From: Anthoceros angustus
Lineage: Eukaryota; Plantae; Anthocerotophyta
DNA length: 64,000 nucleotides
Assembly: GCA_010909165.1 (NCBI GenBank)
Contig: MU008175.1
Span: 124,001-188,000, forward strand
Direction of reading: 5' to 3'
Below the pieces are notes generated by a model, which was not told the origin of the DNA, did not search any database, and saw only the letters and a list, made by a program, of their open reading frames with translations. Positions within the stretch are counted from its first letter, which is position 1, and each line of letters starts with the position of its first letter. A program made the translations under genes and the position numbers. Positions 4,949 through 57,439 of the stretch are shown here, in pieces.

Positions 4949-5130
4949 GAATTTACAATAAGAACTTGAGAATTTTTTTCTTTACTATAATCCTTGAGGT
5001 CTCCCTTGATGTCTTTGAGTAGATGAGTTCACCCATCTCCATTTTACTTGAATTTACAATATAAATAGTTTACAGTTTATAAGCTTTCTCCATGTTGTTC
5101 TATTTGATGATGGTAGCTCAATTCCTCTAG

Positions 5131-15092: not shown

Positions 15093-15097
15093 ACTGC

Positions 15098-17900: not shown

Positions 17901-17919
17901 TGGTGTACAGAGGGATGTC

Positions 17920-30349: not shown

Positions 30350-32700
30350 AAGTTGTTGTCAGAATTGTGGGATCAGCCAAGATAGACAGTGTCGGCAGCA
30401 TGGTCTTCCCTTCTGCCTCCGCTCCTAGACTCTCTAGCTGCCTGATCATTTGTTGGAATAAACATGTTGCATGTTGTTGCAGAAAAGGCCACTTCTCTAA
30501 CACGGCTATCAAATGTTGGCACAAATTTCCTATGTTTGGAGTTGCATCCATTAATTTTCCTGCTGCCTGTGTGGTTGACTCTTCAAGAGTGTGCAAGAAG
30601 GTAGTGCACCATGGCTTACTGCCGCTACCCCTATGTCACGAGAGAGATAATTCTCCCACAAGTTCGTACCTGCATCTTGATTAATCCGCATGCAAGGTTG
30701 TCGAAATTGTGTTTGAGCCTGTGCAACCTCAGAGTACCTAGCAAGTAATTTGTGAGTGGGGACTACTTTGTCCATTACCATCATGACCTTCAACTGGTGC
30801 TTGCACATAAAGCCTCTTGTCCCTTGCTTACATGTGCAATACCCCCAGGGCGTTCCAGCACCACTGACTGTATACTAGCGCACTCTTCCACGGTCCTGAC
30901 TTTGCACATATGCAAGGTTAGGAGATGCTGTGGTTGGTAAGAACACATCATTGTCTACGATGCTCATTGCTTTTTGGAAGGCACTCTTTATTATTTGCTC
31001 TTGCTTCAAGTTCCTAATCATGCCAATTGCTTTACATTGTGCCATATACCAGAAATGTCTATTCACCTCCTCGAACAAAATGTGCAGGAGCCAATCTAAA
31101 CGCCGGTTATGAAGGGTTTTTTTGGAAAGCAAGCATCTGTACTTCAAATGCTTGTGGTATGCCTCAATGGACGAGTTGCAATCCTGCCCTGCATGTGGCA
31201 CTGTACGCATAGCTTTAATCCACTGATGCATGTTAGAGCCCCATTGATCCTTAAAGTACCTGACAAAATTACCAGCCAACTCATGAAAGGTAGCATTGAA
31301 GTGTCCCAACCTTTCCGTGCCAGCTCAATTCACATCTATGCTATCATCAAGGTCCATATGCATAATGTCGCCCAACGACTTTCATGATGGCATGTCTTGT
31401 GTAGGGTTCCTCTACCTTTTTCAACAATTTCTGTAACCAGGCTCTCCTAACATGCCACAAGCATAAACAGAGTTGCATAGATGTTCCAAACACAACTTGA
31501 ATGACATTAATTTCCGCCAAACAATCATCTACTAGAAAAGCAGTGGGCTGCCATTCAAACTTTTGTCGTACCATCTTTCCACGCAAGGAATGCAATCACT
31601 GTAAAATGTCGTGTGTTGTGGCCTTACTTGTGATGACCCAAGCCACAGGAATGCCGTTGAAGTGGTCATCAAAAACCAAAAGTGTGAAGAGCTGGAACTT
31701 CCATTTGTTGGTGCCAAATGTGGCATCCATAGCAATGATCGAGTTGTGACCCCAACGAAGCATTGCCTGCATTTGAAAATCACTCTGGATGCTTAACATG
31801 AAGTCTGTGGCATGGTCCTCTGTTCCAGGCAGTGGGTAGAACACTTCGGATCTATGGATATCCATCCATAACTTGACACTCACCTCATCTGTTGCATGGA
31901 AATGCCACACCCTGGCATCAAGTTCAGCTTGTAAATTCCTAATGTCCCTTGGAAGGAGAAAATCATCCCTCTCAAGGATTGCTTGTGGATCACGATGCTT
32001 CCGTAGGAAAACATCAGACTCATGATCTTTCAAGATCTGAAAGGCTGTTGTCTTACACAACAACTTGTACTTCACCCATTCCTTCTTGGCAGCAGAAAAG
32101 TAAGGAGCAAGGGTGCAGTTTGGATCTGAGTTACTGGCAAACAAACCATAACAATACTGCCCTGACGAATCAATGTGGTGCCCTTCATGTAATCTTAGTT
32201 CAGCCACATCACGGAACATTTCAATCTGGCTCACAAACACCAGAAATTGGCACCTTCGCCTCTTACTCTCCCCACACACTATCTTAGAGCGCCTGCTGCC
32301 AACGCCTGTCTTTGGCTTGTTAGTTAGATCAACACAAACTTCCGATTCAAGAGAACTGTACTTCCAGTAACTATAAGCACAACTGAACTTCATGTAATGG
32401 CAAGGAGTGGTAGGAGAGATTGCATTTTGCCTGATGCCTGACCTTGTCTACACATTTATTCTTATCAACTTTGTTGGAAAGAATTTTGATGACTCCTCAC
32501 TAAAGGTGAAATCTTGATGTATACACCAAGGAATGTAACAAGTTTTAACGAGACTGACTTTCTTCCGAACTGTGTGCACAACATCTTGTCATTCCAGGGT
32601 TTCCCTTGAGAAGGGATCCGAGCAGGGAGTTTGAACAATAAAAGGGCACACTTGGGGCTGAACAAGATAAGGTGCAATTGTACTCTTAGCTCCCACCATG
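30350..32700 (-). mobile_element. Mutator-like (MULE) transposase with SWIM finger, pseudogenised
   Basis: AMDATFGTNKWKFQLFTLLVFDDHFNGIPVAW, FLVDDCLAEIN, LCLWHVRRAW, NSSIEAYHKHLK..RRLDWL, CKH. In-frame stop at 31596 plus frameshifts; TIRs not found. Confidence 0.9.
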
Positions 32701-33459
32701 CTCCCTACAATCCACAATCAAGCCGATTCGACTGTTAGAGTGCACGGAAATTAAAACGCTCAATTGTGCAAGCATGAGACGCAATTGGGAAAAGAGTCAT
32801 GAGATAGGTGGGACGCCTACGGTCATCGCGGGCCGAACCCAAGCTCAACTTTTGGAAGGGAGTTGTGACATTTCCTCTTCCCGGAGTAGAGGTATGATGT
32901 TAAAGACGAGATCCGAGGTTTATGTTAGGAATACAGTCGATTACGGTGAATACAGTGACACGAGACGGACTGGATTACGGTGGCATGGGCGAAGCCTTGG
33001 CTTTCGTAATCGGAGCGTAATCAGAGCTTTGATGGGCAACGGTAGACATGTCATGGTGAACGGCGGAAAGGCCGTGTGGATGGTGACATGGCCGCTGCGG
33101 TAAAGAGGAGTGTGATGCGACCAATGACATGACCGTTGCGGATGTGGTATGGTGGCCATGTGGAGCTGTGCTTTGGATTCCGTGTCCACATTAACTTTGT
33201 AGTGACTAATAGCACCTGCGCCCGGGCTGGGTCTCGGGAAATGCGCACCGAGTCCTAATTTTAAGAAAGTATTTTAATTACTTTCATTCATCCAATCTAG
33301 GTACCTACATATCGTGCCCACGCTTCACCTCCCTTCGGTTTCTTTCATAATCCTGGCTTGCTCGCTATGTGCATCTAGCCGGATAGGGTTGTGGAGCTTA
33401 GGGGTCTTCTTGGATTCCTTTATTTTCGTATTTAATTTAGTTTTTTAATCTCTTATTTA

Positions 33460-34119
33460 TAGATAAGTTTTTATAGATGATGTTAACCATGCTTCTAAGG
33501 CTCGGGCGGAATCCGCAGAGCAGTTGGAACAGGTCCCGGGTAATGCAACAAACCCTGCGTGTTGCAGTGCAGCGAGCGGTGAGTATGCTCGCGCCAGGCT
33601 CTTCGACCCTCCCTAGCCCGCTTACGAGGAGAGCATTGTTGCCCTCCGTGCCCTCCATCCAGCACGCAAGGATGCCATCCCCCCGGACATATCTGACTAC
33701 ATCCCGGAGGATCCCTTCTCCCTGGATCGGGCAGCTTTTGCTCTGGCACTCTCTACGACCCCACGTCTTTCCTGCCGGGTTATCAGGAATGGTGTTTGAA
33801 CACCTCAGGGACCTTTTTCTCCCCGAAGATCCATCTAGTGGCTTCCCAGAGCTCTTTTCTCTGGCCGCTGCGGTGGCTCGGGGTGAGACGCCTCACCGGA
33901 TTTCCCATGTTCTTGCAGCTAGCAGGCTTGTCGCTATGGACAAGCCTGCCCCAGGCTCGGGCGTGCGCCCACTCGCGGTCGGGAAGCCTTCATGCGGCTA
34001 CTCAGCCGCACTATTGCCCTTCAGTGCCGCTCTCTTCTTCAGCAGCACCTCAACCCCCTTCAATTTGGCATTGCCACTCCAGGGGGCTGTGAATCTGTGG
34101 TGCTTGGAGTGAAGGCATG
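33460..34119 (+). mobile_element. CRE-like non-LTR retrotransposon copy 2, 5' part (interrupted at 34120)
   Basis: GEYAR, ALRALHP, GLSGMVFEHLRD, ASRLVAMDKP..GVRPLAVG, PLQFGIATPGGCESVVLGVKAC; continues at 47346. Confidence 0.9.
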
Positions 34120-34703
34120 TGTCGCGCCACGGCCGCATAGCGGACATGGCAGCATGCCATCCTATCAAAATCCGCAAAACAAAAAGTCTTTTAACTACTT
34201 GCTATCAACTCATAACCTTGGGCCACATGCGTCATCACCACCTCCGTCTCACTGCGTTTACAAATGTCTGGCTGTTCTATTGAATCAGACATCAACAATC
34301 CGTCCTCAATGACGGATTCTGGCCTTTGTAGCCTACACCGCCGATCTTAATTCGGCCCGAATTCAAGCCGTGATCACACCCGCACATGTCGGAGATCTTC
34401 GCCGAGCCGTAATTGCGCTTGTGATATTACGCTTGTATGGTCCACATAACCACGACACCATCCTATTTCCATACCCATGCCACTCATCATGCCACCACAC
34501 ACAGCACGCACACCATCACACTCGATTCTTATCTACCTCTTTCTACCACTGCGTGCCATGCGGTCATCGCCACGGCGCATAGCGGACATGGCGGCATGCC
34601 ATCCTATCAAAATCCACAAAACAAAAGTCTTTTAACTACTTGCTATCAACTCATAACCTTGGGCCATGCGTCATCACCACCTCGTCTCCTGCGTTTACAA
34701 ATG
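34120..34703. repeat. Terminal repeat block A1(34120-34266)-B1(34267-34560)-A2(34563-34703)
   Basis: A (GCCACGG..ATAGCGGACATGG..GCGTTTACAAATG) occurs twice here; B matches the far terminus 47041-47345. Confidence 0.9.
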
Positions 34704-37300
34704 GCCCCCGCCAAAGTTAATTGCTCGTATGGCGGCGTCATGTTGTAAGCACCACTTTGGCACTCTCAAATGCCGTAGAATCGTCGGTAAAACCTTGAAC
34801 ATGCCATCCCTTAGTTGTGGTTCCGGCGGTTTATCGTGATCCATTCTCCACAGTGCTAATAACGACCACCGTCGCTCTTCCGGATCGAAATACTCATCAA
34901 CTTGTGCTTTGCCCAACGTGCCCGTTCTTTGCTCGATGCGCGCCATGAGTTCTTCTTCTTCATCGCTATCTAGTTCGGTCTTCACCCTAGGCGGTTGCCA
35001 CCCATTCAAACCATTTACATAATCTTTTTCGATACATGCCCTCGGATAATCACCCACATTGTCGTTCGGAAGATACCAAGATTCGGTGGCTTCATCCCAT
35101 TCCAACACTCTGCACAAGCAAACAAACACCAGAAAGCTCGTGGGTGCAGGTGCGAAACGTCACCTTTTCTCTGCAAGTGACTTAGCCAAACTTTCGGACT
35201 TCAGGTCGCTGGTTTTCCTTGTGCACATTAAGAACCCTTGATGGGCGGTGATCAAACACGATGCATGAGCGGTGATGTTCCGATTTGAAAGGCCCTTCAC
35301 GATGGCGGTCCACACGAAGCTTTGCTGTTCATGCCCCTTCCGCCGACTCAAAAGATCTCTATGATCATAAGGAAAACTCTCTATGTTGCAGCCCTCATGG
35401 TGTGATTCCATATACAGCAAAAATGCTTGCAACTCGAATGTCTCGGTCGTTCGGGTTTACCGGTGATACTTCCTTACCAGCGGTGTTTTCCACTTGTCTT
35501 CCCATGGCACTAAAATTGCGGAACACTTGTGCTCATTCTCCGGAAGCATGATTTGCAAGTGTGGTGCCTTCCATATCCATGTCAACCACATGTTGTCCCC
35601 ACGAGAACCCTCTTTGATGCTCTCGAATTTGGAAAGCGGGTGTTGTTAGTGTTGGTCAAACAACCATATGGTGGTTGATTCACGGAAGACTACTATGTTT
35701 GCAATCGGCCTTGCAAAGCGAGTGTCTTGCTTGTTAGTCAACACAAGGCGATTGCAATGAATGTCACTTGGTCTTACACATGTCACCCTTGTCACTTGCC
35801 GTCTACATAACAAACATACCATGCACCCTCTCTCGTGCTCACATCCGGACACTTGATGCCATGACCACCTTCGCTTGTTCTTCACCCCAATTCTTACGTG
35901 ATCACCGCCTTTTCACTTTTGTCACTTGAGCTGCCTCTTATCCCTATCTACACCGCAACTACATACGTGCTTCGATTACCGCTCGATTCGTGCCGCTACG
36001 ATGTTCCATCGTCATCGCCTTCCTTCACCGCAACAACTCGTTGATGTCCCGGATCAGCCGCCTTCCTTGCTTCGCACCCACGCGGTCACCGCAATTAGCT
36101 TTCTCCCACATGCACCGTGATGACCGCCGTTCACCTTCTCGCACCCACACGCCGCTCTTCCGGATCGAAATACTCATCAACTTGTGCTTTGCCCAACGTG
36201 CCCGTTCTTTCGCTCGATGCGCCATGAGTTCTTCTTCTTCATCGCTATCTAGTTCGTCTTCACCCTAGGCGGTTGCCACCCATTCAAACCATTTACATAA
36301 TCTTGTTTTCGATACATGCCCTCGGATAATCACCCACATTGTCGTTCGAAGATACCAAGATTCGGTGGCTTCATCCCATTCCAACACTCCATGTAAGCAA
36401 ACAAACACCACAGAAAGCTCATTGGGTGAAAGCGTCGCCTTTTCTGCAGTGACTTAGCCAAACTTTCGGACTTCGTAGGTCGCTGGTTTTCCTTGTGTAC
36501 ATTAAGAACCCTTGGTGGGCGGTGATCAAACACGATGCATGAGCGGTGATGTTCCAGTTTTGAAAGGCCCTTCACGATGGCGGTCCACGAAGCTTTGCTG
36601 TTCATGCCCCTTCTCACCCGACTCAAAAGATCTCTATGATCATAAGGAAAACTCTCTATGTTGCAGCCCTCATGGTGTGATTCCATATACAAAAATGCTT
36701 GCAACTCGAATGTCTCGGTCGTTCGGGTTTACCGGTGATACTTCCTTACCAGGTGTTTTCCACTTGTCTTCCCATGGCACTGGAAATTGCGGAACACTTG
36801 TGCTCATTCTCCGGAAGCATGATTTGCAAGTGTGGTGCCTTCCATATCCATGTCAACCACATGTTGTCCCCAACGAGAACCCTCTTTGATGCTCTCGAAT
36901 TTGGAAAGCGGGTGTTGTTAGTGTTGGTCAAACAACCATATGGTGGTTGATTCTCGAAGACTACCTATGTTTGCAATCGGCCTTGCAAAGCGAGTGTCTT
37001 GCTTGTTAGTCAACACAAGGTGGCACGATTGCAACAGAATGTCACTTGGTCTTACACGTATCGTCACCTTCACTTGTCTACATAACAAACATGCCATGCA
37101 CCTCTCTCGTGCTCACATCCGGACTTGATGCCATGACCACCTTCGCTTGTTCTTCACCCCAATTCTTACGTGATCACCGCCTTTTCACTTTTGTCACTTG
37201 AGCTGCCTCTTATCCCTATCTACTGCACTACCGCCTTGTTAACAACTCGATTACCGCTCGATCGTGCCTCGGCTACGATGTTCCATCGTCATCGCCTTCC
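34695..37300 (-). pseudogene. Extra sense-strand ORF downstream of pol, unknown function, frameshifted, partly duplicated (period ~1280 bp)
   Basis: Fragments KRVLVGDNMWLTWIWKAPHLQIMLPE, QQSFVWTAIVKGLS, VLEWDEATESWYLPNDNVGDYPRACIEKDYVNGLNGWQPP; ~34873-36140 repeats at ~36153-37410. Confidence 0.55.
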
Positions 37301-37987
37301 TTCACAACAACTCGTTGTTCTGTCGGTCGAGCCTTCGCTTCGCACCCACACGCGGTCACGCACTATTTCTCTCCCACATGCACCGTGATGACCCCTGGTT
37401 CACCTTCTCGCCGCTACGGATCGATGCACTCACACTGTATTTCTCCGATTGTCGGGCCTTCTCCAATGGATCGCTGAATCCTCCAGTCTATTGTAGAATC
37501 CTCCTTTGTGCCCGCCAATCCTCCGTCCACACCTTTACTTCCCTTGCGCTCGCCAACTGTCGTCTCACACAACCCGCATATCGATAAGGCAAGTAACGGG
37601 TTTTATAGACCTTCCCTTTAGTGACTCTCTTCCGCACCCACACGCGGTCACCGCAATTAGCTTTCTCCCACATGCACCGTGATGACCGCCGTTCACCTTC
37701 TCGCACCGCCACCGCAGATCGATGCACTCACACCGTATTTCTCCAGATTGTCGCCTTCTCCAATGGATCAATCCTCCGCCTATTGTAGAATCCTCCTTCG
37801 TGCCCGCCAATCCGTCCACACCTTTACTTCCTTGCGCCGCCAACCCACTGACGTCTCACACAACCCGCATCGATAAGGCAAGTAACGGGTTTTATAGACC
37901 TTCCCTTTAGTGACTCTCTTCCCGCACGCCCACACCGTGAGTGCGCGTTTACAGCCCCAGCTTCTTTCCGCCTAACTTTTCCGTCGT

Positions 37988-38120
37988 GCATTTGTGACAA
38001 AACCATTCTCCTTCCGGATCGCTTTCAGCGGTCGAAGACAAAAGACATGATGTCCTTGGTTGCCTTTGGTCACACAACATTAGTTGGGTCGGTGATTTGA
38101 CCACGGTGTTCGCCGCAGCG
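37988..38120 (-). other. PHD zinc finger at the C-terminus of integrase
   Basis: Across two small frameshifts: QLMLCDQ(C)NQGHHVFCLRP-LKAI(P)EGEWFCHKC; not visible in the ORF track. Confidence 0.85.
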
Positions 38121-38479
38121 GATCAACAGGTGGCTTCCATGCTTGTGGTTGTATGCGTATCAAGATTCGGCAAGTGGCAGGCGGATGTCGCATGTGCTCC
38201 TTGCATCGGCGCCCATCTTGCCCTTCCAACTCGATGACCCCTTGCTCACCAACGCGTTCACCACTCTCAAAATCAACCGTCCGTGTTTACGTCCAAAGTG
38301 CGGAAGGGCGATGTTGAAGATACACGAAATCACCCACTTGAACTTTCTCCGGCTTCCATGACCTCCTCGTGTGAATGCATACCTCAATTGATCTACGTCA
38401 TGCGATGGCGGATTGTCCATCGCCATGGGTATCACTCGTTGTAACAACTTGGCCCGGTTTCGTAACTCGAGCAACACTC

Positions 38480-39200
38480 ATCCACATCTTGTGTCCGATC
38501 CCGGTTTGGAATATGTATGCGCCACTATGTTGGGCAAGATTCTCGCCAAACATTATGTAGTAGGGTGAAGTTGCCTGTGGCTGCACATGCGATCACAGCC
38601 CGGGGCAGCGTGGGTAGCAACTCATCCCAACAATTAGGCTCGATTTTGCGACTTGCGAAGTGAATCCTTGAAAGTTTGCACCACCTTTCGCTAAACCATC
38701 CGCACGAGGATGATCCGTGGCGTGCGTCTGTGATCTATCAAACTCCGATCCAACAACGCTTGGAACTCTCCTCTGAATTCGTTTCCTTGATCTGTCAGCA
38801 CCTCTGCACAGCTTCCATATCTGCTCAAAACGCACTGTAAGAAAGCTCGTGCTGTGACTTGGGAAGTTCTGACTGGAAGGAATGCCAATTCCACCCACTT
38901 GGAGAAGTGTTCTATCATGAGCATACAATGCTTGTTGCCTTGCTTGGTCAATGGTAGCTCTGGCATGAGGTCAACGGACCATCGAAAGAACAGAGACCCG
39001 AATAGGCGTGAATGCAACACCACATCACAGGTTGAACCTTGCTTTGAGCGCATCACAAGCGACATCTCGACACCACTCGCTCGACGTCGGAGTACATTCC
39101 GGACCAAAAATAGGCACTCTTGACATGATGCGTCCTTTTACCAAGTGCCCAAGTGTCTTGTGCACTTTACTCACTATCATTCCGTTCCTCTATGGGAGGG
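38480..39200 (-). pseudogene. DDE (rve) integrase
   Basis: HKTLGH; FFRWSVDL..ELPLTKQGNKHCMLMIEHFSKWVEL; RYGSCAEVLTDQGNEFRGEF; HPRADGLA. Confidence 0.92.
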
Positions 39201-39529
39201 ACCATTTTACACACTCCACGATCATCACTAACAATTTGCCATCCCTCCGTATACCTCATGACCTTCCGTCAGCTTTGAGCAGGCGCATCTAGTCCAACTA
39301 CTTGTCCTTCCTTCAATAGCTGAATAGCATGCCCATATTTCCATATGTCTCGTCCCCCTCATTGAGTTGTTTTCTTCCTTCACGACTTGTGGCCATGAGA
39401 GCCATATACATGCTTGGCATGTAACGAGCATGATCAAAATCTGCGCGCACAGTCCATCTTTGTCATCAAAATCTTGGGTTCTGCTAAGTCCATCCGCATT
39501 GTGATGTACTTTTCGCCTGCACTATGTGC

Positions 39530-42150
39530 ATATCATATTCGGCAAAGCCCACCTTGCGAGCTTGCCACTCAACTTCATGTTCGTCATTAACCGATTACAG
39601 CTGGTGATCGATCACGAGTTGGAAGCTCTGCCGAACAAATAAATTAAATGTAGAAGCGCCCACCGCGGCCAAACATTCACCCTCATCGACGAATAATTGG
39701 CTTCCAGCGGGTATTCGACTGCATCAATCACTCTTTCTTTTCCTTCCCGATCCACACAGCAAGCTGACTCGATTCCGTTGCACTCGGTCGGTATCTGAGT
39801 GAGCGGTTTTTCAAAATCGAGCCGTTTGAGCATGGGCCTTTCGACATTGATCCTTTAACTCCCAAGCATGTTCATGTTTTTGCTCCCCCATGCCCCCCTT
39901 TTCATCGGATCATACAATACCTTGCAAGTCGCTCATGTTCACGATGAATCGGCGATAATAGTTGACGAGTCCCAAGAATGCTCTCAAGCGGCTCGTCCCT
40001 TGGTCTTGGCATAAGATTGTGACTGCACCTTCGCCATGCGGCGGCCGCCTCTGGCACAATCTTGTGACCCAAGTATTCTATCTCCTTGTAAGCAAACTTA
40101 CACTTCTTTGGATGTGCCTTGACCCAGGCGGGCGGTCTGCGGCGCGTTTGAGGTCTGAATGTGTTCCTCAGCGTTGCTAAACACCAAAATGTCATCAATG
40201 TAACACCTCACGAATGGTAATCCTTGCAACTCCAAGTCTGCCACCCTCTGAAAGTAGATGGAAGCGTTTTTCAGCCCAAAAGGCATCGTCTCCCATTCCC
40301 ACAACTGTTCTTTGCCCCAGAAAGCCGTTTTACACTTGTCTTCTTCTTCGATGACAATTTGATTGAATCCAGAACGGAAATCCAACGTCGTAAAATACTT
40401 GGCTTCGCCAATCGCGTCAAAGATTTCATCTGGGGTAGGCATGGGATATCGCTCCATAGGCGTTACCTCATTCAGCGCCCGATAATCTCCACACATCCGT
40501 CTGTCCTTCCATTCGCCGTTTCATCTTTCTTTAGCGGAAGGACCGTGGCGACATCTTGTGAACTTGATTTCCGAATTAATCCAGTGCAGCAAGTTCCCTA
40601 CACCGTTTATCCACAATGTCCCTCTGCTGGGCTCAACTTGCCGTCTTGACCGGCTCATTGGTAGTAGTGATGATTTTGAACTTGATGCGCTCATAACGTC
40701 CAGCTCTTGCCGGTGAGCGAAGGTACCCGATTCTTCTCCGGCATCTCCGGATCACCGCATTGATCCTCGATATTCAAGTCCTCACATATTTGCCATACAT
40801 GAGTTGAATGCCCACTCGTGCTTTCCACTCGCGACGATACTTCTTACGCACTATTCGCAGATTTGGGTACTTGTCTGATTGTAAACTCTTCCCGTCACCC
40901 ATCATCGTGCGACCTTCCCTGTCTATCGACTTGCATTCATTGTGTGGCTATTCCCACACTCACCAACCATTGCACACAAGTCAGGTCAAATGCTTGTCCC
41001 AGAAGTTTGCATCTGAAAGCTTCTGACACACCTCGCGTATAGGTGCTGCCATCGTCAAAACCCATCGCTCGTTCCCGCTCTACAATCGTGGGTTCCCCCA
41101 TCTCCTCACCATTCATGTTCAATACCATGCCCGCACCACCTCGGCGAAAGGCATATGACTGAGCCGTACTGACCAGTGTGGGCCAAGCTCTCCTGGGTTC
41201 TCCCACAATATTGACAGGATAGTGTGGCAACCTATCCATCCTGCTCACCTGTTGCGATCGCCTGCCCTCCTCAAGGATCCCATCCAGGTTCCGCTTAGTT
41301 GACCAGTGTGGTTAAACCGATCTGAGTGAACGGTTTTTCAAAATCGAGCCGTTTGAGCATGGGCCTTCGACATTGATCCTTTAACTCCGCCAAGCATGTT
41401 CATGTTTTTGCTCCCACGCATCGTGCCCCTTTTCATCGATCATACAATACCTTGCAAGTCTTTCATGTTCGATGAATCGGCGATAATAGTTGAGTCCCAA
41501 GAATGCTCTCAACGTCCCTTGGTCTTGGCATAAGATTGACAACGCACCTTCGCCGGCGACGCCTGGCACAATCTTGTGCCCAAGTATTCTATCTCCTTGT
41601 AAGCAAACTTACACTTCTTTGGATGTGCCTTGACCCAATCGATCTGCAGCAACGCTTCGAGGTGCTGAATGTGTTCCTCCGCATGTGCTAAACACCATGT
41701 CATCAATGTAACACCTCACGAATGGTAATCCTTGCAACTCCAAGTCCACCCTCCGAAAGTAGATGGGCGTTTTCAGCCCAAAAGGCATCGCCTCCCATTC
41801 CCACAATCGTTCTTTGCCCCGAGCCGCTTTTACACTTGTCTTCTTCTTGATGACAATTTGATTGAATCGAATCTAAAGTCCAACGTCAGAAATACTTGGC
41901 TTCGCCAATCGCGTCAAAGATTTCATCCGGGGTAGGTAGGCATGGGATATCGCTCCATAGGCGTTACCTCATTCGCCCGATAATCTCCACATCCGCTTTG
42001 TCCTTCCATTCGCGTTTCATCTTTCTTTAAGGACCGTGGCAGACATCGTGAACTTGATTTCGAATTAATCCAGCAGCAAGTTCCCTACACCGCTTTATCC
42101 ACAATGTCCCACTCGGCTCAACTTGTGCCGTCTTCGGAAAACCGGCTCGT
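39530..42150 (-). pseudogene. Reverse transcriptase (two tandem copies, period ~1527 bp) and RNase H
   Basis: MCGDYRALN..YPMPTPDEIFD..FTTLDFRSGFNQI..MPFGLKNA..CYIDD (40098-40496, repeated ~41550-41990); RNase H GKERVI..EANYSS..YLFG..GKLARW. Confidence 0.93.
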
Positions 42151-42469
42151 TGGTAGTAGTGATGATTTTGAACTTGATGCGCTCATAACGTCCCAGCTCT
42201 TGCCAGCTGAACGCGAAGGTACCCCGATTCTTCTCCAGCATCTCCCGGATCCTGCACTGATCCTCGCTATTCAAGTCCTCACATATTTGCCATACATGAG
42301 TTGAATGCCCACTCGTGCTTTCCACTCGCGACGATACTTCTTCTGCACTATTTGCAGCATTTGGGTACTTGTCCTGACGGACTGTAAACTCTTCCCCGTC
42401 ACCCATCATCTGTACACGACCTTCCCTGTCTATCTGACTTGCATTCAGCTGTGTGGCTATTCCCACACT

Positions 42470-43335
42470 CACCAACCATTGCACACAGGTCGTCAAATGC
42501 TTGTCCCAGCAGTTTGCATCTGAAAGCTTCTGACACACCTCGCGTATAGGTGCTGCCATCGTCAAAACCCATCGCTCGTTCCCGCTCTACAATCGTGGGT
42601 TCCCCCATCTCCTCACCATTCATGTTCAATACCATGCCCGCACCACCTCGGCGAAAGGCATATGGTGAGCCGTCTTGACGATGTGGGCCAAGCTCTCGGG
42701 TTCTCCCACAATATTGACAGGATAGTGTGGCAACCTATCCATCTGCTCACTGCGATCGCCCGCCTCCTCAAGGATCCCATCCAGTTCCGCTTAGTTGGTG
42801 TGGTTAAACTGATCGCTGAGTGTTTCCACACTCAATGTTAAATCCAGCTGCGGAGGCGATGAGCATACGACCGCTTTGCACCGCGTCAATGATGAACTCC
42901 TCGCCCGACTCGACCTTTTCATAATTTTCTCTCACATGACCCGTTTGTCAAAGCTCCAAACATTCTCCAGCAAGTACCAACATGCGGATTGCATCGCTGC
43001 ACTTCTCTCGAATCCGTATCACTTCCCCGCCCGATCGCACTCCGTTGCCTTGACCACGTCCGGCCTTGGAAAAGGTCTTGCACTCCCATCCGCAATCGGC
43101 ATGTCAGCGGGCATCTCATTGCACATGCTTTTCCCACCCACATCACATCGGTGGGATTTGTGCACCCTCTTATGGCTTCCACACTCGGCAAGCTCGGATG
43201 CATTTTTGTAGCGATAATCCGGATTTGGCCAACGCCGAGTCTTCTCATCAATTTCTACACACGTATACTTCCGCACGAATCCCACATCGCACACACTCCG
43301 GTCCACTACTAATTCCACGAACACAACTCCATGAG
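42470..43335 (-). pseudogene. C5-cytosine DNA methyltransferase domain between protease and RT
   Basis: Motifs I/II VVFVEL..SG..VRKYTCVEID (~43245-43330); IV DM.IA.WEC.TFSKAG (~43060-43110); VI YLLENV (~42960-42978); VIII IDAVQ..YAHRLRSW (~42845-42890); IX-X ERERAMGFDDGST..RCKLLGQAFD (~42480-42600, duplicated at ~40980-41090). Confidence 0.88.
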
Positions 43336-43494
43336 ATGGATGCCTGTTCATGCACTCGCCACCGAATCACTTGGTTGTCGATTTGTAACCCGATTTCCTA
43401 TGATTGCTTTCATTGTGGCGGGCTTCTTCCGGACAATTGCGGTGATTCGCCATATTTGCATCCGCTGCGAATCGCTCTCTTTCCAAAGCTTCCT

Positions 43495-44061
43495 CTACGG
43501 GTGGTGACTCACGCGCACATCATTCGATGTCGTGCTTTCTTCGACACCTCGTGTCGTGCAGTCTTGTCTCTTCCACACCTCCCTCGGTGAACACTTCGGT
43601 ACGCCGTGAACGCCAAAGATACTTCTTGATCTTTCACCATGCCTCCTCATGTCCGGAGGAATTGCGACATGTGTGAAATCTCCATCTCGCCATTTTGGCC
43701 TATAAAATGCCACAGAGTGCAGCGGATCCACCCCCATTGCTGGCCCGTGCGTAGCATCTGCACCCAACAACACATCATAGTTTCGTGCATCTGAAACTAA
43801 ACAATGCACTTCCACCACACACGCATCTGCTGTTCCTGGCTTATACTCTATCCGAATCGGATCGCGAGTCATCCCCATCACCTGTTCTTTGGTGCCTGCA
43901 GATGTGGTGATCCGTACCTCACACGGCTTCAGCTTGTCTCCATACAGTTGCAGTGCTTCTTGCACCCGTGCCCCAAGCAACACTGGATCGGCACCAGTGT
44001 CTACTAACACACACTCCGGTGCAAAGCCATTGACGGTGACTTCTCGTTCGCGATTCTTCAC
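43495..44061 (-). pseudogene. Retropepsin-type aspartic protease
   Basis: VTVNG..VLVDTGADPVLLG..ITTSAG..NYDVLLG. Confidence 0.88.
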
Positions 44062-44139
44062 TAACGCTATTCCACCTTTCCCCCTAGCTGCGGCTTTAGG
44101 TGATCACCACGTAAGCTGACAAGCCCGGACACCATGTTC

Positions 44140-47070
44140 AACTCAGTGGCTTCCTTCTTAATCCATGCCCGCATTGCTTGCTTGAGCGGTTGTGTCCGGA
44201 TCCCGGTCCCGCAAACTTACCGGTACATCCATGGCTTTTTCCAACGAATCTACGTATTAGGAACAACCTCATCCTCGATGTGTGGCGTCGTCCGTCACGG
44301 ATCTGCACGAATGACTTGGGCATTCTCAATCGATTCTATCCCCATCGGCCTTCACTTTTACACCCTTGCGAAATCAATGCTTCCCACTTTGGTCTCGCCT
44401 TGACCTTTCGTCATCAACGCAAACACATCTTCGTCCGAATCATAGGTTTCTGCCGACGCACATGAGTCCTTGTTTATGCTTACGCTCATAGCCAGCTGCT
44501 CTTGCAGCCTGCACCTCACTAAGCGATGCTTCAGTGTAGCTTCCGATTCTGCTTGTCCATTGCTCGGTCTCCTAGGCCCTTGGGTTTGAGTTCGGGATGG
44601 GCTTGCCAAGCGGCTTCCGTATGTCGGTTTTACCACATGCCTGCGCCTCTTTCTCCTTTGACCCACCAACACGATGCTCACATTCATACGCCTTATGCGG
44701 CCCCTTGCACCGCAAACACTTTTACGGATGTCTTGAAGCTTACGGCGCTGAGCCACTTGATCCTTTGATGGCGACTCTCTGCGTTGGCGTTCACTGCACA
44801 TGCTCGCGATAATGTGACTTCCGGTGCCGAATGTTGAAGTCTTTGGTGTGACCTCGATCACATTGTGCTCCTCCCGATGGCATTGGTGGACATCTCCTTC
44901 ATAACTCTTTCGGCCATCTCGTCGCTGCTCCAACTCATAATCTGCCCCATGTAGCATGTCACGAGAAAGTTGGCGATCACCCTCCTCTGTCTTCCCGGCA
45001 GCAATGTATATTTGCGCTGCCTCCTCATGGTCTTCACCTTGGTGTCTTTCACCACCGCCTCAACCGTAGATGCGGATCTTAGAGGCTCATTGCTTGATCA
45101 CAAACTTTGACAACTCTTGGATTTTCTCAATGGAAGATCGGGAACATCTCACCAAACTTGGCGAACATCTCGTCCACCAAATAAGTGATGACCTCGGATT
45201 GCGATGAACCCGATGATCCTGGTTCTTCATCATCGACCTTGGAGCCTTTCCTTGCCCGCTTCATTCGCAGCGACATGTGTGCATCCTGCGGTATCTTTTC
45301 TTTGCGATCCACGATAGCGGGTTAAAGCTTCACCGGCTAGAAAGCGTGCTCATCTTTCGAGTGCCATCTCGGTGTGAACTCGGACTTGTATTTGAGCACC
45401 ATCTCATCAATCGCCCATCGAACTTCTCTTCAAAGTCGCAAGAGACATACTACCGTGTCTACACGAACACATCATTTTCTTTGGTGGTTCATAATCCATC
45501 CTGGCGCCACCACGATTTTCTTCAAAGTCAATGGATCGATAGTGTGACTCCTCAAGCGACCACTTGTCCTACGGACCGGAAGCCGTGCCCGGGATTGTAA
45601 GCTTAGTTGTCGGTGTGCTTCGTTCGTCCACCACGACCGTAACAACACCATCACTATCAATCCCTCCCCTGCGAGACTATGTAAGGCATTAGTCAAAGTT
45701 GGTGTCGATTCCTTCCAGCGTCGATCCGCCAACCATGCCGACTTGTCAATCACCTCACTCGAGGCGTTGCCAAAAATCGCTTCCGGCTCCACCGGATCGG
45801 CCCACTCGAATGGATGCACACATAAAGCGGCCGTGAATAATCCAAGGTGTTTTCTCGATCTACCATGGACTTATACGTGTCGTTCACCGGCTTGGGGTCA
45901 CCGATTGACTTCCTCTTCTCCGTCTTCCGCTCGAATCTGGGCCCTCTCTCGGACCCTTGAGTCGCGTTGCTACCTTGTGTGGCTTCACCGGCATGCGGAT
46001 TGTTGATGTGCAAAATTCTTGACTTGGGATGGTTGTCCTCTGCACACCACGGTGAAGCATCACAAGGTGCTCGCAAAATGCTTGGGATCCGTCTGCCGTT
46101 CTATTGAATCGGACATCAACAATCCGCCCTCAATGACGGATTGCGATGAACCCGATGATCCCGGTTCTTCATCATCGACCTTGAGCCTTTCCTTGCCCGC
46201 TTCATTCGCGACATGTGCATCCTGCGATCTTTTCTTTGCGATCACGATAGCGTTAAAGCTTCACCGGCTAGAAAGCGTGCTCATCTTTCCGAGTGCCATC
46301 TCCGGTGTGAACTCGGACTTGTATTTGAGCACCATCTCATCAATCGCCCATCCGAACTTCTCTTCAAAGTCGCAAGAGACATACTACCGTGTCTACCGTG
46401 AACACATCATTTTCTTTGGTGGTTCATAATCCATCCCGGCGCCACCACGATTTTCTTCAAAGTCAATGGATCGATAGTGTGACTCCACTCAAATCGACCA
46501 CTTGTCCTACGGACCGAAGGCATGCCCGGATTGTAAGCTTAGTTGTCGGTGTGCTTCGTCCACCCCGACCGTAACAACACCATCACTATCAATCCCTCCC
46601 CGCGAGACTATGTAAGGCATTAGTCAAAGTTGGTGTCGATTCCTTCCAGCGTCGATCCGCCAACCATGCCAGCTTGTCAATCACCTCACTCCAGAGACGT
46701 TGCCAAAAATCTGTCGCTTCCAGCTCCACCAGATCGGCCCACTCCTGAATGGATCTGCCTGCATAAAACAGCCGTGAATAATCCAAGGTGTTTTCTCGAC
46801 AGTCTACCATGGACTTATCTGTGTCGTTCACCGGCTTGGGGTCACTGATTCAGCTTCCTCTTCTCCGTCTTCCGCTCGAATCTCGGGCCCCTCTCTCGGA
46901 CCCTTCGAGTCGCGTTGCTACCTTGTGTGGCTTCACCAGCATGCGGATTGTTGATGTGCAAAAATTTACTGACTTGGGATGGTTGTCCTCTGCACACACC
47001 ATACCAAGCATCACAAGGTGCTCAAAATGCTTGGGATCCGTCTGCCGTTCTATTGAATCAGACATCAACA
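44140..47070 (-). pseudogene. Gag-like ORF1 region, frameshifted, partly duplicated (period ~940 bp)
   Basis: Lies upstream of the protease with coding-like fragments; ~45195-46136 repeats at ~46137-47090. No clear Gag motif, so the call is positional. Confidence 0.45.
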
Positions 47071-47345
47071 ATCCGCCTCAATGACGGATTGGACTTTGTA
47101 GCCTACACCGCCGCCGATCTTAATTCTGGCCCGAATTCGGCCGTGATCACACCCGCACATGTCGGAGATCTTCGCCGCCCGAGCCGTAATTGCGCTTGAC
47201 CGTATTCGCTTGTATGGTCCACATAACCACGACACCATCCTATTTCCATACCCATGCCACTCATCATGCCACCACACACATAGCACACGCACACCATCAC
47301 ACTCAGATTCTTATCTACCTCTTTCTACCACTGCGTGCCATGACA

Positions 47346-49325
47346 CATGCCTTGATACCCACCCGGAGTGGGTAGTCTTACAGGTTGATGTCGAGAACGC
47401 CTTCAATACCATTTCTAGGAGCGTCATCTTGAGGAGCTTAGGGATCTTTGGCGGCGTCACAGCCTTATACCTTTGTCCGGTGCTTCTACGGAGGTCCTCC
47501 AACCTCTACTACCGGCACAAGAACGTCTCTTGAGTTCTTTGTCTCTGTCTTGGAATCGGCCCGCAGTACGGGCAAGGCGACCCCTAGGTGGTGCTCTCTT
47601 CGCCATTGCTCACTATAGGGCCCTATCTAGGGCCGCCTTCTCAGCCTATGTCTTCCCTTGTTGTGGCGACTCTCACATCCTCGGGCCTGGGGACAAAGTT
47701 AAGGAGGCCTTTGAGCTCTTCTCTCATGAGCTTTCTTTGGTGGGCTTGAAGGTCAAGATGTCCAAGTGCCGCGTCTGGTCTCCGTCGGGATTCTACCTAC
47801 TTTGCGCCTCACTGGGAGATTGCTCCGGCTTTGGGACTGCGGATTCTAGGGGTCCCCTTCGGTTCCCCTGACTTCATCGGGAGCTTCCTGGACCAGGCTC
47901 TCGCAGAGGACCTCTCCCATGTCGAGGACCTCCCTTTCTTTGGAGGATGCAGTGGCCTTTGGAATTCTTTCCTCTGTTTTGCTAGGCGCCACAGTTACCT
48001 CATCCGTCTGTTGCCTCCGTCCCGACACTTTTGTCCGGTGCGGTTTGATAGGAAGATTATGGATACTCTCGGGGACATCCACAGGCTCGGGGCTTTTGAG
48101 TGCCCTATGGGCGTCGGCCCAGCAAGCGTCCCTACATGCAATTTGGAGGCCTGTGCACTCTCGGAGGTCTCTTCCCGGCGGCTTTCACAGGCGATTGGGC
48201 CCTCTGCCCTGCTTGGCTTCTCGGTTCATCCTCCATGACAGCCCTTCGAGGATCTCGTATCAGGTGTGGAGGAGGGAACCTTCTCTCTCCAAACGTCCTT
48301 GAGGCAAGCTAGGGACATGTTATCAGTGGATGCTCGGAAGGACTTCCCTCCTTTCTCGACATTTATTACTGATGGTTTCGGGGGGTTGCATCTCGCCGAG
48401 AAGCGGCTCGGCCGGGCTTTCGATCATCCTCCAGGACCCCTCCATCCCCAGGTCCACAAGAGCGCGGCTCCGCTCTTGTTCTGGGAAGGGCGCAGGTGCT
48501 TGGCTATTGGCCCGCCCATGCATACGGGGTTTTCACATCGCACCAACCACTCTGCGATGCGATTCCGTCTTGGCTGCTCCGGCTGTGGCTTCTTCGCTCC
48601 TTACTTGCAGTGCGGCTCGCCTCGATGATTACGGTACACCTTGCTCGTTGTCCCCCAGTCATCGCATTGCCACTCACGGCGCCATCCAGCGATGTCATGT
48701 TCGCCATCGCCGCGAAAGCGCTACATGGCATGGAGGGAGCGGATGTATACTCTCCGTCTGGTCGTTCAATCGGTGACTGTACCTTGTCCGTCAGACCGAG
48801 GTTTTGATGGCGGATGTGGTGGTTACCGATCCTACGAGACACCATCTCGCTCGGTCATCACTAAGTCGAGTTGGGGCTGCCGGGCGGCTCTCAAGGTCCG
48901 CAAATATAGCGGGATGCAAGCGGGCCACCTCTTTATTCCGATTGCACTAGAAACGTATGGGGCAATGGCTGAGGACTTTGACAAATTTGTCAAGTCTTGT
49001 GCCAAAGCTTACCATGCACGTAGACACGGTCTGTCCTCTCGTACTTCACGGCATACTTCCGACAAACGGGTTTCAATTGCCCTTCAACGGGCGCTCTCAA
49101 CGGCGCTCCTCCACAAGGCGGCGACAGGTGACGCATCTTCCTCTACCTCCGTGGTTTGCAGGCCGTTTATTCTTCCTGCATATGACATTGTGGGTGCAGT
49201 AGGTGACTTTAAGTAGGGAGCTTAGTTGCTCCTCTTCACCTCGACCCCCTGGTCCCCTTTGGTTGTCTCCTCCTAGATGGGCTTTTCCCATCGTTTTTTA
49301 CCTCAATAAAATCTCTTATTCCCTT
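47346..49325 (+). mobile_element. CRE-like non-LTR retrotransposon copy 2, 3' part
   Basis: VLQVDVENAFNTISR, PLGGALFAIAH, DSHILGP, GLRILGVPFGS, KVRKY..FIPIALETYG..RVSIALQR; 3'UTR hairpin and AATAAA shared with copy 1. Confidence 0.9.
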
Positions 49326-52538: not shown

Positions 52539-52810
52539 GGCTGCCGATTGCTGTCACGGCAGATGCGCATCTCTGCCTTCAGAAAACCAAACAAGAAAGC
52601 TCAGCCTTCTCCTCCCTCCACGGCCTACAAGAGGGCTTGCCATCCACTTCCCTTCGCAGGGACGAAACCGCGTGGCCATCCCGGAGAAGACGGCGCCTTC
52701 ACACAGTAGAAGCATGTGGGAGTAAACGCGGCGAAACTCGCAGTCGTGCAAACCAAGTTATCCGCAGGTGGGAACTGTGTCACGTCTCAAGCGTTGGACG
52801 CGGTCGCGGG

Positions 52811-53962
52811 ATGGTGGATGTGGTTCAGCCGGTTGCCATGACGCTGCTGCGGCGTTGCGTGCTCGAGGTGGCGCGCAATCTGCCCGCCTTCGCTGGCCAG
52901 CTCCATGCCCTGCCTTTGGAGCTGGCGGTGATGGTTTTGCAAGAAATCGTGGAGCACCGGCCTAGTCACAGGAGGATTGTGGCGGAGTTGCAACTGTTCT
53001 GTCAGGTTTTCTGGTCTCCCAAGAGCATCTCCTTGGCTAATGTGGCACGGGTGAATGGTGCCGGGCTGTTTTGTCTGCACATGGCAGGGAGGGCACTGGA
53101 GAGCTTGGATTTGAGCGATTGTGTGTGGCTGGACAGTCTTTACTTCCTGCCGGGTCTGTCGCAGTTGCGGTGCCTGGATCTGCGAGGGTGCCGGCTCCTG
53201 CCTGGGGATTGTTTGGTGTCCATCAAGGCCCTGCCGCAGCTGGAGTGCCTTGATCTGGAGGATGTGGCGAGCATTAAGGATTCTGCGGCTGCTTACCATA
53301 TCGCAACCATGCGCAGGCTTCGTGCACTGAATGTTAGCGGGACAGGTGCCGGGGACCAGCTCATCGACGCACTCACGTACGGGGCCAGGTTGCGCAATTG
53401 GGCGGGCGACAAGGGTGGCGTTGCAGTGAGAGAGGGGGGAAATGTCGAAGGGGATGATGCTTCGTCTTCCAGCACGGGTTTGGATTATGTGCAGAGTTTG
53501 TTGCTCAGTTGGCCCACATCCCAGCTGGTGCATTTGAGAATGCAGGGCACTACAATTACCAAGGAATCTGTGGTGAAATTGCTAGCTCTGCCTAACTTGC
53601 TCCTCCTCGATGTGCGGAACACAAGCATTGCAAGTAGGTCTCTTGCTTCCCTTGCTGCAAAGTATGGCCTCACTGCCCTGCCCGAAAACCCTAAGTTGGT
53701 AGCTCGTTCCAACAGCGTCATGGCAGCCACTCTTCGAGGTGCTTGTGGGTGTCGCGCAATGGATAGCATTCAATCCAAACCTTGTAGATCGGATCAGGGG
53801 AAGGGGGATCATTTTGTGGAATGGGAGCGAGCAGGAGTTGTTATGTTGTTGCAAGAGGCGAGCTGCGTTATCGGGGGACCTTCCAGTGCTCGGGATTTTT
53901 GGAGGCCATGCCAGAGCTTGCACCCAGCCAATACCAGACGGGTGGTGAGTTACGGAGGCTGA
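52811..53962 (+). CDS. Leucine-rich-repeat (RNI-like) protein
   Basis: SxLxxxC-like N-terminus (TLLRRC..LPLEL) and repeats LESLDLSDC, LRCLDLRGC, LECLDLED, LRALNVSGT, LVHLRMQGT, LLLLDVRNT; likely ATG at 52811. Confidence 0.8.
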   Translation: MVDVVQPVAMTLLRRCVLEVARNLPAFAGQLHALPLELAVMVLQEIVEHRPSHRRIVAELQLFCQVFWSPKSISLANVARVNGAGLFCLHMAGRALESLDLSDCVWLDSLYFLPGLSQLRCLDLRGCRLLPGDCLVSIKALPQLECLDLEDVASIKDSAAAYHIATMRRLRALNVSGTGAGDQLIDALTYGARLRNWAGDKGGVAVREGGNVEGDDASSSSTGLDYVQSLLLSWPTSQLVHLRMQGTTITKESVVKLLALPNLLLLDVRNTSIASRSLASLAAKYGLTALPENPKLVARSNSVMAATLRGACGCRAMDSIQSKPCRSDQGKGDHFVEWERAGVVMLLQEASCVIGGPSSARDFWRPCQSLHPANTRRVVSYGG

Positions 53963-54636: not shown

Positions 54637-57439
54637 TTACTGCTTCCGCCGGACCACCATATTCGGACTGAGCGCCTTCATTCTGTGAAGGTGGCAACTT
54701 CTCATATGGGCCTTCAGGGACTCTGGCTTGAAGCTTCTGCCGCATTGTCTGCAAGTCATGGGGCATACATGTCGGTTAAAGAAAAGGACACACGAAGAGT
54801 AAAGATCTGAAATGGCAGCGAACGTTATTCGCACGAGGTTCTTGGGTTCGGACACTTACAGGCAGTCCTGCTGCCTGAACTCCTGAGCAGGAAGCATGGA
54901 GTCTGCACTATCTTGAAGGGTTCTCCCGTCGACGCTGTTTCTGGACCAGTCGATGCTGCTTCGGGACCAATCGACACTGTGCCGTACACAATCCACACTG
55001 CTCCGTCCGGGAGTGTAAATCCTGCACGTAGGAAGGGCCGAGTCAGCTCTGTAGCACAAATCCTACATATCTGGCCCGAGAGTTGCATGTTGCACATACA
55101 ACAAATGGATGCCTACCTTTCTGGTCGAGGCTTCGAATCAGGCCTGGGAGAACTTGTGTCCTGCCACCACTCCAAAGTGGACTTGGGAGAAGCCTTGTCC
55201 GAAACATACTTGACCCCAGTGGATGTAGACAAGAGCTGCTTGGCCACAGCACGACTTACATTGGAGACTCTCGGACTGGCCAAGTCCTTGACTCCGTCCT
55301 TGGGAGTGGTCCTGACTCGCAGCTTGGTATCATTGAGGCCCTTGTGGAATCCTGGAGGTAGAACCTTGCTTGCGTTACCATCTTTTCCTTCAGAACCAAG
55401 CTTGCAGTCTAGCTCGAGGTAATCCCCCTCCAATCCACCAAAGGAGTGCCTTGAACTGCCACAAGGAAACAAGGAACACTTTCTGTCAGACTCAATTGAA
55501 CACACTCTAAACAAACACTGGAGCGATTGCGCTTGCCTTCAACAAAATAACATACCCGAAGGATGCTCTGGGAGTGCTGCTGATCTCTCCAGAGGACGAT
55601 GTCTGAGTTGCTGAGGTAGTCTGCACTGAAGCCCCGGAATTGCTGCCTTCGCATGAACCACTCTCCACTGCAGACGAAGAGTAAGATCCTGCAGGCGAAG
55701 TGCACGCCCCACCTGAAGACACCGACATGGTAGGGGAAGGGCAGGACTGAACCCGCCCGAGCCTGATGCTGGGTAGAGCTGGAGCATCGGTCTCTGTAGC
55801 CACGGTCGCTGACGTCTTCAATTCCGCCGGTGGGCAGGGAGCCACTGTCAGGGGCTGGCTCCGAGTCTGAAGAGGAGAAGATTGTCTGGCCTTCGGGGTC
55901 GAGTCCTCCTCCGCCCGCTCTGCATTCTGACGCTCATGGGCCACTGCTGCTGCTGCGGCTGCTGTTGCTGCCGCCGCCGCCTTGGCACTGGACTTAGACT
56001 TGCTTCTCCACAGCCAGCCCGGGGTGACAGGCGTTGAGGAAGGATGGTCCGGGGACAGAGTGGTGACTTGCGACCTGATATCCACCACCCCACAAAGCAT
56101 CTGACGGAAGGAGTGGTGCTTCCCTCTGGACCGGCTGGAGCTGACGGTCCCGGACCCAGAAGACTGCTCGTCCTCATCTCCGGCGAATCTCCCCAGCCGA
56201 ATTCGGGTGAGCATGTTCTTCTCCACGAGACCCGGACCAGCCGGGACGGACGCCTCGGGGGTGGAAGGAGGAGTGATAGCCCTGCTGGAGCCGGCGTGCG
56301 GAGTCCGGGGAGACTTGCAACCAGTCCCGCACTGGCTCAGGTGGGACAGACTCCCGATTCTGGAGATTGATCTGGACTTGAGGGGCGGCAGGTCATCCTC
56401 ATTGCTTCCCTCGTCCTGGGCCTCTGTCTGGGTTGCAGCGTCGGCCGCCTTGTCGGTTGGGGCAGGAAGCCTGGGCCTCTGGTACACTTTGCAGTCGGAG
56501 GAGTTGGAATCCTCCGACAGGTGGTGGTCGCTGGAGATGCTGATGCTGCACTCGTCCGCCTCCTTGGCCAAGGACAGGCTGTTCATCACCTGCTGGTTCA
56601 AGCTGTTGCTGAGGGAGTTGTTGGCGGCCAGCTTGCTGAGATCATTCACCAGGAGCATGGTGCGGGAGGATTTGGACTGGGAGTGCGGGCCGCGGTGGAG
56701 CTGGTAGTCCGGCCCACTGGAGGGAGCGCTGCAGGTAGCCCGCGGCCCCTCTCCCTTGAGCTTCTTGGAGAAGGAGGTGGCGGACTTGTCCTTGACCTGC
56801 TCCTTGTTGGCCTCAGCCTTGTCTGCAACAAAGGCAACAATGCATGCGAACCCGAATGAGGCTTCCGGAAGCAGACTGCGGAAGGGAAGCTACCAGAATG
56901 AGATCTATCTCGCTGGAAGTAGAAGAGATGCGATACCTTCGCATTCATCGTCGTAAATTTCAGAGCCCTTCATGATGCACTCCCCCGTGGGCACTGGCAG
57001 GATGGGGTCGTCATCGCTGGACAGGTCATTCCAGATGTAGTTGTTCTTGTAGAGCCTGGCGGAGAGAAGCAAAAGGAAGGAAGCAGCAGGAATTGTGTGA
57101 GAGCGCGCGGGGAAAGCGAGGGGAAACGATGAGGAATCAGGGAGGCTGGAAAAGTGAGCAACCTTTTGTAGGACCAGCAGAAGGAGTCGGCCATCCCCCT
57201 CCCACGGACCTGTGCAAGCCGCTTCTTGACATCTGCAAAACAATCCCGGACCGCCGGAAGTGAGGAAGCCAGCTTGCAGGCAGGGCAGCGGTGACAAGAA
57301 GGGGAATCCGGTGGCAACAGATCCCTTTACCTTGCAGCAGCACATGGTGCTGCTCTGCCGGGAACTTCACCTCAATCATATGAGGATGTTCCATCTGCCC
57401 GGCCCTGCTGAGGTAGTAGACAACCCGCACCATCTCCAT
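54637..57439 (-). CDS. SOK: SOSEKI polarity protein (DIX-like DUF966, CG motif, C-terminal zinc finger), 7 exons
   Basis: Exons 57439-57331, 57232-57163, 57055-56937, 56822-55556, 55455-55117, 55021-54860, 54748-54637, in frame. VVYYLSRAGQMEHPHMIEV..DVKKRLAQVRGRGMADSFCWSYKR.YKNNYIWNDL; FRQMLCG; CLQCGRSFKPESLKAHMRSC. Confidence 0.92.

Follow-up and report, generated by a model that had tools for sequence, protein, structure and literature searches.

A Ty3/gypsy retrotransposon of a likely land plant, with a DNMT3-like methyltransferase domain in Pol between protease and RT

The window, a stretch of DNA of 64,000 nucleotides, contains a Ty3/gypsy element in which a C5-cytosine DNA methyltransferase (DNMT) lies between the protease (PR) and the reverse transcriptase (RT). 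This had been proposed by the original prediction and is upheld, with PR, RT and the integrase (IN) recognized by Pfam and the DNMT by a frameshift-aware profile. The reading favored here, to which a probability of about 0.8 is given, is that the element has a Gypsy Pol with a DNMT3-like domain, is likely of the KnitGypsy-Dnmt3 kind, and encodes an enzyme that is likely packaged and methylates new cDNA before or at integration.

Anatomy of the element

The features of the element are as follows.

34116..34119, no strand: 4-bp target-site duplication, left copy CATG
34120..47345, minus: whole Ty3/gypsy element with TGT...ACA ends and split direct repeats; starts TGTCATG, ends CGACA; element ends exact
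47346..47349, no strand: 4-bp target-site duplication, right copy CATG
47040..47345, minus: repeat A1, 5' end, begins TGTCATG; 91% to A2, with 4 mismatches and 13 gap events
44558..44623, minus: weak match to the relatives' Gag region, likely a CCHC knuckle (iE 0.011)
43747..44058, minus: aspartic protease (DTG); Pfam Asp_protease_2, E 3e-6
42449..43347, minus: DNMT3-like C5-cytosine methyltransferase, motifs I-X, interrupted in the assembly by 14 indels and 1 stop; frameshift-aware profile alignment
41572..42586, minus: DNMT-to-RT linker and first RT copy (broken); motif X into RT N-terminus stop-free over 42586-42095
40940..41308, minus: second copy of the DNMT C-terminus, 123 aa, break-free; E 4.5e-44 among 2349 six-frame pieces
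40055..40520, minus: reverse transcriptase (YIDD); RVT_1, E 8.6e-18
39543..39993, minus: RNase H (RH), fragments
38029..39139, minus: DDE integrase, H2C2, core and C-terminal region; rve E 9e-11 at 39139-38715
37985..38089, minus: possible PHD finger at the integrase end; iE 0.08-0.2, equal to chance matches elsewhere in the window
34713..37950, minus: 3' internal region, partly duplicated, possibly with an extra ORF; no family matched
34704..34712, minus: G-rich run immediately 5' of B1, likely polypurine tract; same-place G-run in seven relative loci
34561..34703, minus: repeat B1; self-BLAST and repeat-pair comparison
34266..34560, minus: repeat A2; self-BLAST
34120..34266, minus: repeat B2, 3' end, ends CGACA; self-BLAST

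The element is about 9.2 kb long when each of four internal tandem duplicates is taken once. It lies within a multicopy LINE-like RT repeat, and the empty site is present in contigs from two related sequencing runs, X9 and X8, which fuse ~34115 straight to 47346. Self-BLAST of the element found no pair of equal LTRs; the layout is A1...B1-A2-B2 instead. These split direct repeats rule out a canonical LTR element with two equal LTRs and a primer-binding site. A TGG-starting primer-binding site was not seen 3' of A1 in the window or in four related loci, which were inspected by eye rather than with a tRNA library, and a tRNA gene search found none. The PR-RT-RH-IN order with a DDE integrase, the TG...CA ends and the short target duplication are those of Ty3/gypsy, and among the element pieces scanned in Pfam there was no match to a tyrosine recombinase, with rve present instead. 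The enzymes are of the Gypsy type, yet the element is not a canonical LTR retrotransposon. Ordinary LTR finders would miss such elements because they seek two equal LTRs.

Gag probably extends from ~44100 to 47000, as judged from its position. Weak Pfam matches on window pieces (E above 0.02) were counted as chance; the PHD finger is strong at the end of intact relatives. About 1.7 kb of unique sequence 3' of the integrase resembles an extra ORF and is missing from the loci of the relatives.

A profile built from the DNMT domains of 14 relatives aligned to 43347-42449 with 163 bits, covering profile positions 6-328 of 331 (323/331). The scores of the controls were 12.5-18.2 bits for 12 shuffles and ~15 for the reversed sequence and the opposite strand. 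The motifs I, IV (GWEC), VI (ENV), VIII (HRLR), IX (ERERAMGF) and X (LLGQAFD) occur in the canonical order that had been described, hidden by frameshifts, and were aligned through 14 breaks and one stop. All the catalytic motifs are present in the window DNMT and methylating activity is predicted. The WEC at motif IV, said earlier to keep the catalytic Cys, is an ordinary variant in the family: of 108 scored domains, 34 have WEC and 58 WPC. The break-free copy is the 3' third of the domain and sits in a 1.5-kb tandem duplicate (39793-41328 / 41320-42822). Identity to the best relatives is ~35% in the bridged reading and 50% in the intact piece. The reading frame is stop-free from motif X into RT, and the stretch from protease to DNMT is unreadable in the window copy. 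Comparison with PF00145, which had been proposed as a check, gave a mixed outcome: the domain is recovered with the relatives' profile, but none of the 14 raw stop-free window pieces, taken unbridged, matched PF00145. In the relatives PF00145 covers the motif I-VI part alone, which is the most broken part of the window DNMT, and the intact relatives pass the Pfam gathering score.

Breaks in the domain and the surrounding sequence

Gaps make up most of the differences between the four tandem duplicates and their partners (self-BLAST, pair comparison), and the duplicates are probably long-read assembly artefacts. When short-read contigs from the same sample were compared with the window over 8 listed pieces (~1.7 kb), 68 gaps and 36 other letters were counted. 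Because these pieces, from elsewhere in the element, differ mostly by gaps, the breaks in the DNMT likely also stem from long-read assembly, in a copy that would be fairly young, by extrapolation from pieces that all lie outside 42449-43347. The same-sample run X2 has zero cover over 42212-43663 and over one copy of several duplicates, and among the contig joints listed none skips the DNMT. Runs X8 and X9 cover the PR, RT and IN regions far deeper than the DNMT part, which may reflect faster divergence or relatives that lack the DNMT. Run X1, presumed to be RNA, yielded no contigs over the element, a result that carries no weight as to expression.

Two genes next to the element bear on the identity of the host.

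55400-57457, minus: SOSEKI gene; two DIX exons at 56973-57457, PF06136 E 1.7e-7 and 1.6e-4
52616-53959, plus: leucine-rich-repeat gene, convergent with SOSEKI

The nearby SOSEKI gene had been taken as a sign of a land plant. This agrees with the PF06136 matches on two exons and with the description of SOSEKI as land-plant specific (PMC9915684, PMC8774072).

Is the window copy a decayed relic, with real breaks and a DNMT that is dead in this host? The 14 breaks and one stop within 900 bp of DNMT are what suggest it, along with the real stops found in many related loci, but it is considered improbable. The duplicated part of the DNMT is open for 123 aa without a break, A1 and A2 have only 4 mismatches in 310 nt, every repeat pair differs mostly by gaps, as do the same-sample contigs from the window, and adjoining single-copy exons are open over 460-545 aa. 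It is less probable still that the sequence comes from a contaminating alga, or that element or contig is chimeric, and that the host is no land plant. The assembly is noisy in this region and the land-plant claim rests on one gene family; however, SOSEKI is 8 kb away in the same window, the empty site in the LINE-like target repeat was found in runs with words in common with the host-gene region, and moss and liverwort assemblies independently carry the family. The preferred reading is of a fairly young copy in a likely land plant, probably broken by assembly.

Other sequences in the window were also characterized. The LINE-like RT target repeat spans 33400-34115 and 47350-49200, has a related copy at 2244-4981 (minus), is deeply covered by runs X2, X8 and X9, and had no Pfam match in its pieces. 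A 7.1-kb segment, 14551-21654, lies between inverted repeats of ~310 bp (89%). Inside it a broken reading at 17950-18760 (plus) has a weak Pfam match to N6_N4_Mtase (E 0.033), and its motifs were presumed by eye to be like those of beta-class amino-methyltransferases; PDB and NCBIfam scans of this reading gave no support. The segment may represent another mobile element that bears a methyltransferase. A MULE/ZSWIM-type transposase fragment is located at 31599-32444 (minus), and two long open frames (545 and 455 aa) at 5786-9214 (plus) have a GC content of 31-35%, compared with ~50% for the window, and no Pfam match.

Relatives and origin of the domain

The RT piece, used as a query, found P0004, a protein that has PF00145 together with RT, RH and IN, and its DNMT region used as a query found 14 long and 9 short relatives. 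The break-free 123-aa piece matched 491 clusters (50% identity) at E<=0.001 in a set of 1.84 billion representatives. Of the best 150 clusters, 58 combine the DNMT with PR, RT, RH or IN in one protein; another 91 consist of DNMT pieces only, and the last one matched no domain. Two layouts occur in the family, PR-DNMT-RT-RH-IN and RT-RH-DNMT-IN-PHD, and some relatives have the DNMT within Pol in a single ORF (P0146, P0130, P0220). The named carriers include the moss Sphagnum fallax (KAH8931579.1, PF00145 E 1.5e-11) and Closterium, both with the DNMT before RT, and the chlorophytes Scenedesmus and Hariotina, with the DNMT after RNase H. A liverwort fragment from Calypogeia fissa (CAM6104272.1) is the second-best match, 47% to the window piece. 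No entry from Klebsormidium nitens was present among 30 family proteins looked up. Proteins P0163 and P0164 of Hariotina reticulata have a weak Tudor-like (PF21743) match C-terminal to the PHD finger.

Judged by these sequences, the host range of DNMT-bearing Gypsy elements is wider than published and takes in several green algae as well as a liverwort and a moss. Self-methylating retrotransposons, their activity being predicted, would be extended from one alga to land plants, including tractable bryophytes. Why does a transposon bear the silencing enzyme of its host? In bryophytes, with their methylation mutants and methylomes, this question becomes directly testable.

The 34 related loci comprise 19 with PR-DNMT-RT, 7 with PR-DNMT, 3 with DNMT-RT, 4 with DNMT only and 1 with Gag-DNMT, counts that overstate independence because many are one insertion twice (for example L018/L019, L026/L027, L030/L031). 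Two cases that the original prediction had raised against itself, that other family copies lack the domain and that the segment has its own insertion boundaries, were not borne out by these loci. Because 19 of the 34 share the PR-DNMT-RT order, the DNMT is not a separate nested insertion; most of the other loci are truncated by the end of a contig or by a deletion.

The family profile matched DNMT3A in PDB at 4e-24, DRM-type enzymes at 5e-15 to 1e-11 and M.HhaI at 7e-9, and the structure model of the relative L001 (pLDDT 95.5) had DNMT3A/B as its best match (TM 0.72-0.73). By these profile and model comparisons the domain is assigned to the DNMT3-like family, ahead of DRM and bacterial enzymes, and its motif order is unrearranged, unlike that of DRM. 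The dN/dS comparison that had been proposed was done on four intact relatives and gave 0.07-0.12, or ~0.1, in five of six pairs, with one pair saturated; by this measure the DNMT of the intact relatives is under purifying selection.

The proposed phylogenies were also built, with FastTree only. The DNMT tree contained 85 of 106 sequences (21 domains more than 85% identical were left out) and placed all domains labelled post-RH, those of Hariotina and Scenedesmus included, in one clade with support of 0.99. The branch of the window DNMT nests among retro-DNMTs; it is long and its placement is weak (support 0.79). The RT tree contained 72 of 168 domains (96 were left out as more than 80% identical or as surplus outgroup) and grouped the DNMT-bearing elements with support of 0.86. 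Its rows marked 'noD' were not scored as DNMT losses because many are truncated or lie behind a readthrough stop. The phylogenies cover the DNMT domains of the family, and RT domains including an outgroup. Viral contigs gave partial, weak matches only, with phage matches restricted to motifs near IV. The single match in a prokaryote genome is L064, a whole Gypsy-DNMT contig in a cyanobacterial metagenome-assembled genome, which is probably eukaryotic DNA that was mis-binned. As part of the best explanation, it is thought that a DNMT3-type gene was probably captured once, long ago, in the green lineage, and that the domain later came to lie before RT or after RNase H.

Replication, the substrate of the enzyme and known systems

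Locus L018 has the same A1...B1-A2-B2 layout with a 4-bp duplication, and a 4-bp duplication is also present at L026, which is rearranged. The B/A junction 3' of pol reads GACA-2nt-TGTC in L001, L003, L018 and L064, and three of these four junctions are perfectly palindromic; the window B1/A2 junction, as assembled, departs from the CA-2nt-TG pattern. A G-run is located 5' of B1 in L001, L003, L006, L012, L015, L018, L064 and the window. The A2/B2 joint varies, being direct in the window, with one additional base in L018 and extra internal bases in L026/L027, and L006 and L015 have A...B only at their 3' ends. The shared junction, the G-run and the varying joints are the basis for a circle model. 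Reverse transcription would produce cDNA with B-A repeats at either end, the cDNA would become a circle, and the DDE integrase would cut the circle at the internal CA-2nt-TG junction and insert it, leaving A1...B1-A2-B2. The observed layout would follow from a circle with two repeats, and A...B only from a circle with one, although recombination between B1 and B2 explains the A...B ends of L006 and L015 equally well. The evidence suggests that a circle is opened by the integrase at an encoded junction, with less support than there is for the reading of the enzyme. The conserved repeat anatomy offers a natural test of circles as obligatory integrase substrates.

The DNMT frame is open in five loci, L001-L004 and L064, and in all five an in-frame TAG-CARYYA parts Gag-PR-DNMT from RT; the sub-lineage with this stop between DNMT and RT includes the Sphagnum protein. 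L004 has a second in-frame TAG, 5' of the DNMT and outside a CARYYA context. The TAG-CARYYA site is absent from the window copy. Stop-CARYYA is the plant readthrough consensus (PMC5397192), and the predicted readthrough would put the DNMT at Gag-level abundance in that sub-lineage. The purine run with the near-palindromic junction, and the TAG-CARYYA stop, look undescribed; they were not found reported in a literature search that had most subscription journals outside its coverage. A wider joint reading is offered tentatively, at somewhat less than even odds. A Gypsy clade spread through the green lineage, from chlorophytes to bryophytes, would package its own DNMT3; polypurine-tract priming, DIRS-like circularization and integrase opening at a mid-repeat att junction would make pre-methylated circles the true integration substrate; and one sub-lineage would overproduce the DNMT with Gag via the leaky TAG-CARYYA.

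That the land-plant lineage of the window recently and independently captured a methyltransferase from its host or from bacteria is very improbable. The distance to the best relatives (~35% identity bridged, 50% in the intact piece) is in its favor, but the window DNMT nests among retro-DNMTs, the RT clade has support of 0.86, the phage matches lie near motif IV alone and the lone prokaryote match is itself a Gypsy contig. What the enzyme acts on is a closer matter. According to the favored reading, the Pol protease would release the DNMT, which would travel in the particle and methylate new cDNA. It is less likely, yet deserves some weight, that the DNMT is real and selected but acts elsewhere, on the insertion site or chromatin (steered by the integrase PHD finger), on RNA, or as a restraint that benefits the host. 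Such options are given in the Discussion of de Mendoza 2018 (PMC5890265), the intact relatives end in a PHD finger, and the CpG o/e of the element is 0.99, compared with 0.61-0.80 in adjoining sequence, so the window copy has no mutational footprint of long CG methylation. Against this, young age alone could give a CpG o/e of 0.99, the relatives having 0.28-0.82, and the site within Gag-Pol together with the Gag-level stoichiometry in the readthrough sub-lineage would fit co-packaging with cDNA.

DNMT-bearing Gypsy elements in land plants or chlorophytes were not found in the literature searched, although Repbase-type entries may already contain them; the earlier remark that no land-plant case had been characterized agrees with this, the published Gypsy case being that of K. 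nitens. The accessible text of PMC10952607 and PMC6317226 makes no mention of such elements, and that of PMC12344493 and bioRxiv 10.64898/2026.05.21.726589 still cites 'streptophytes' only. SymbioDIRS-Dnmt3 and SymbioLINE-Dnmt (PMC5890265), EpiLTRs and DAM-LTRs (bioRxiv 10.64898/2026.05.21.726589) are likewise retroelements with a DNA methyltransferase; they differ from the window element in RT class or methyltransferase clade, the EpiLTR DNMT being sister to DNMT4 (same preprint). De novo CG methylation has been demonstrated for SymbioDIRS-Dnmt3, a dinoflagellate DIRS enzyme and not a Gypsy one (PMC5890265). The Phygy, Selgy, Chlamyvir and Tcn1 lineages of REXdb have the Gypsy domain order in non-seed plants or algae, and 4-bp duplications occur (PMC6317226); set beside the window element by description, they come without a PHD or methyltransferase domain in the main text as far as accessible.

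The split direct repeats A1...B1-A2-B2 are shared with Ngaro, PAT and VIPER (PMC6681497), but the window element combines TG...CA ends and a duplicated 4-bp target with a DDE integrase, and its 3' region is unexplained. DIRS elements use a tyrosine recombinase, whereas the window element has a DDE integrase. Foamy-virus integrase cleaves the palindromic junction of 2-LTR circles, a precedent by analogy only, as that junction consists of joined cDNA ends and the one in the window family is encoded inside the element (PMC1180852).

The closest system is KnitGypsy-Dnmt3 of K. nitens, which has the DNMT in Pol and DIRS-like repeats and was called an acquisition of that lineage (de Mendoza 2018, PMC5890265). 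Both elements have Gypsy domains and an intronless Dnmt3-related domain in Pol, both have A1 and A2 flanking the ORFs and two B repeats flanking A2, as in DIRS, and purifying selection on the domain was published for KnitGypsy-Dnmt3 and is indicated for the relatives of the window element. The comparison is by description only, and the accessible text gives no target duplication, junction, polypurine tract, readthrough or domain position for KnitGypsy-Dnmt3. The host of the window element, unlike that of KnitGypsy-Dnmt3, is likely a land plant. Because the A1...B1-A2-B2 repeats match the published layout, the window element likely belongs to the KnitGypsy-Dnmt3 kind, and it therefore adds to a capture already known, a new capture being improbable.
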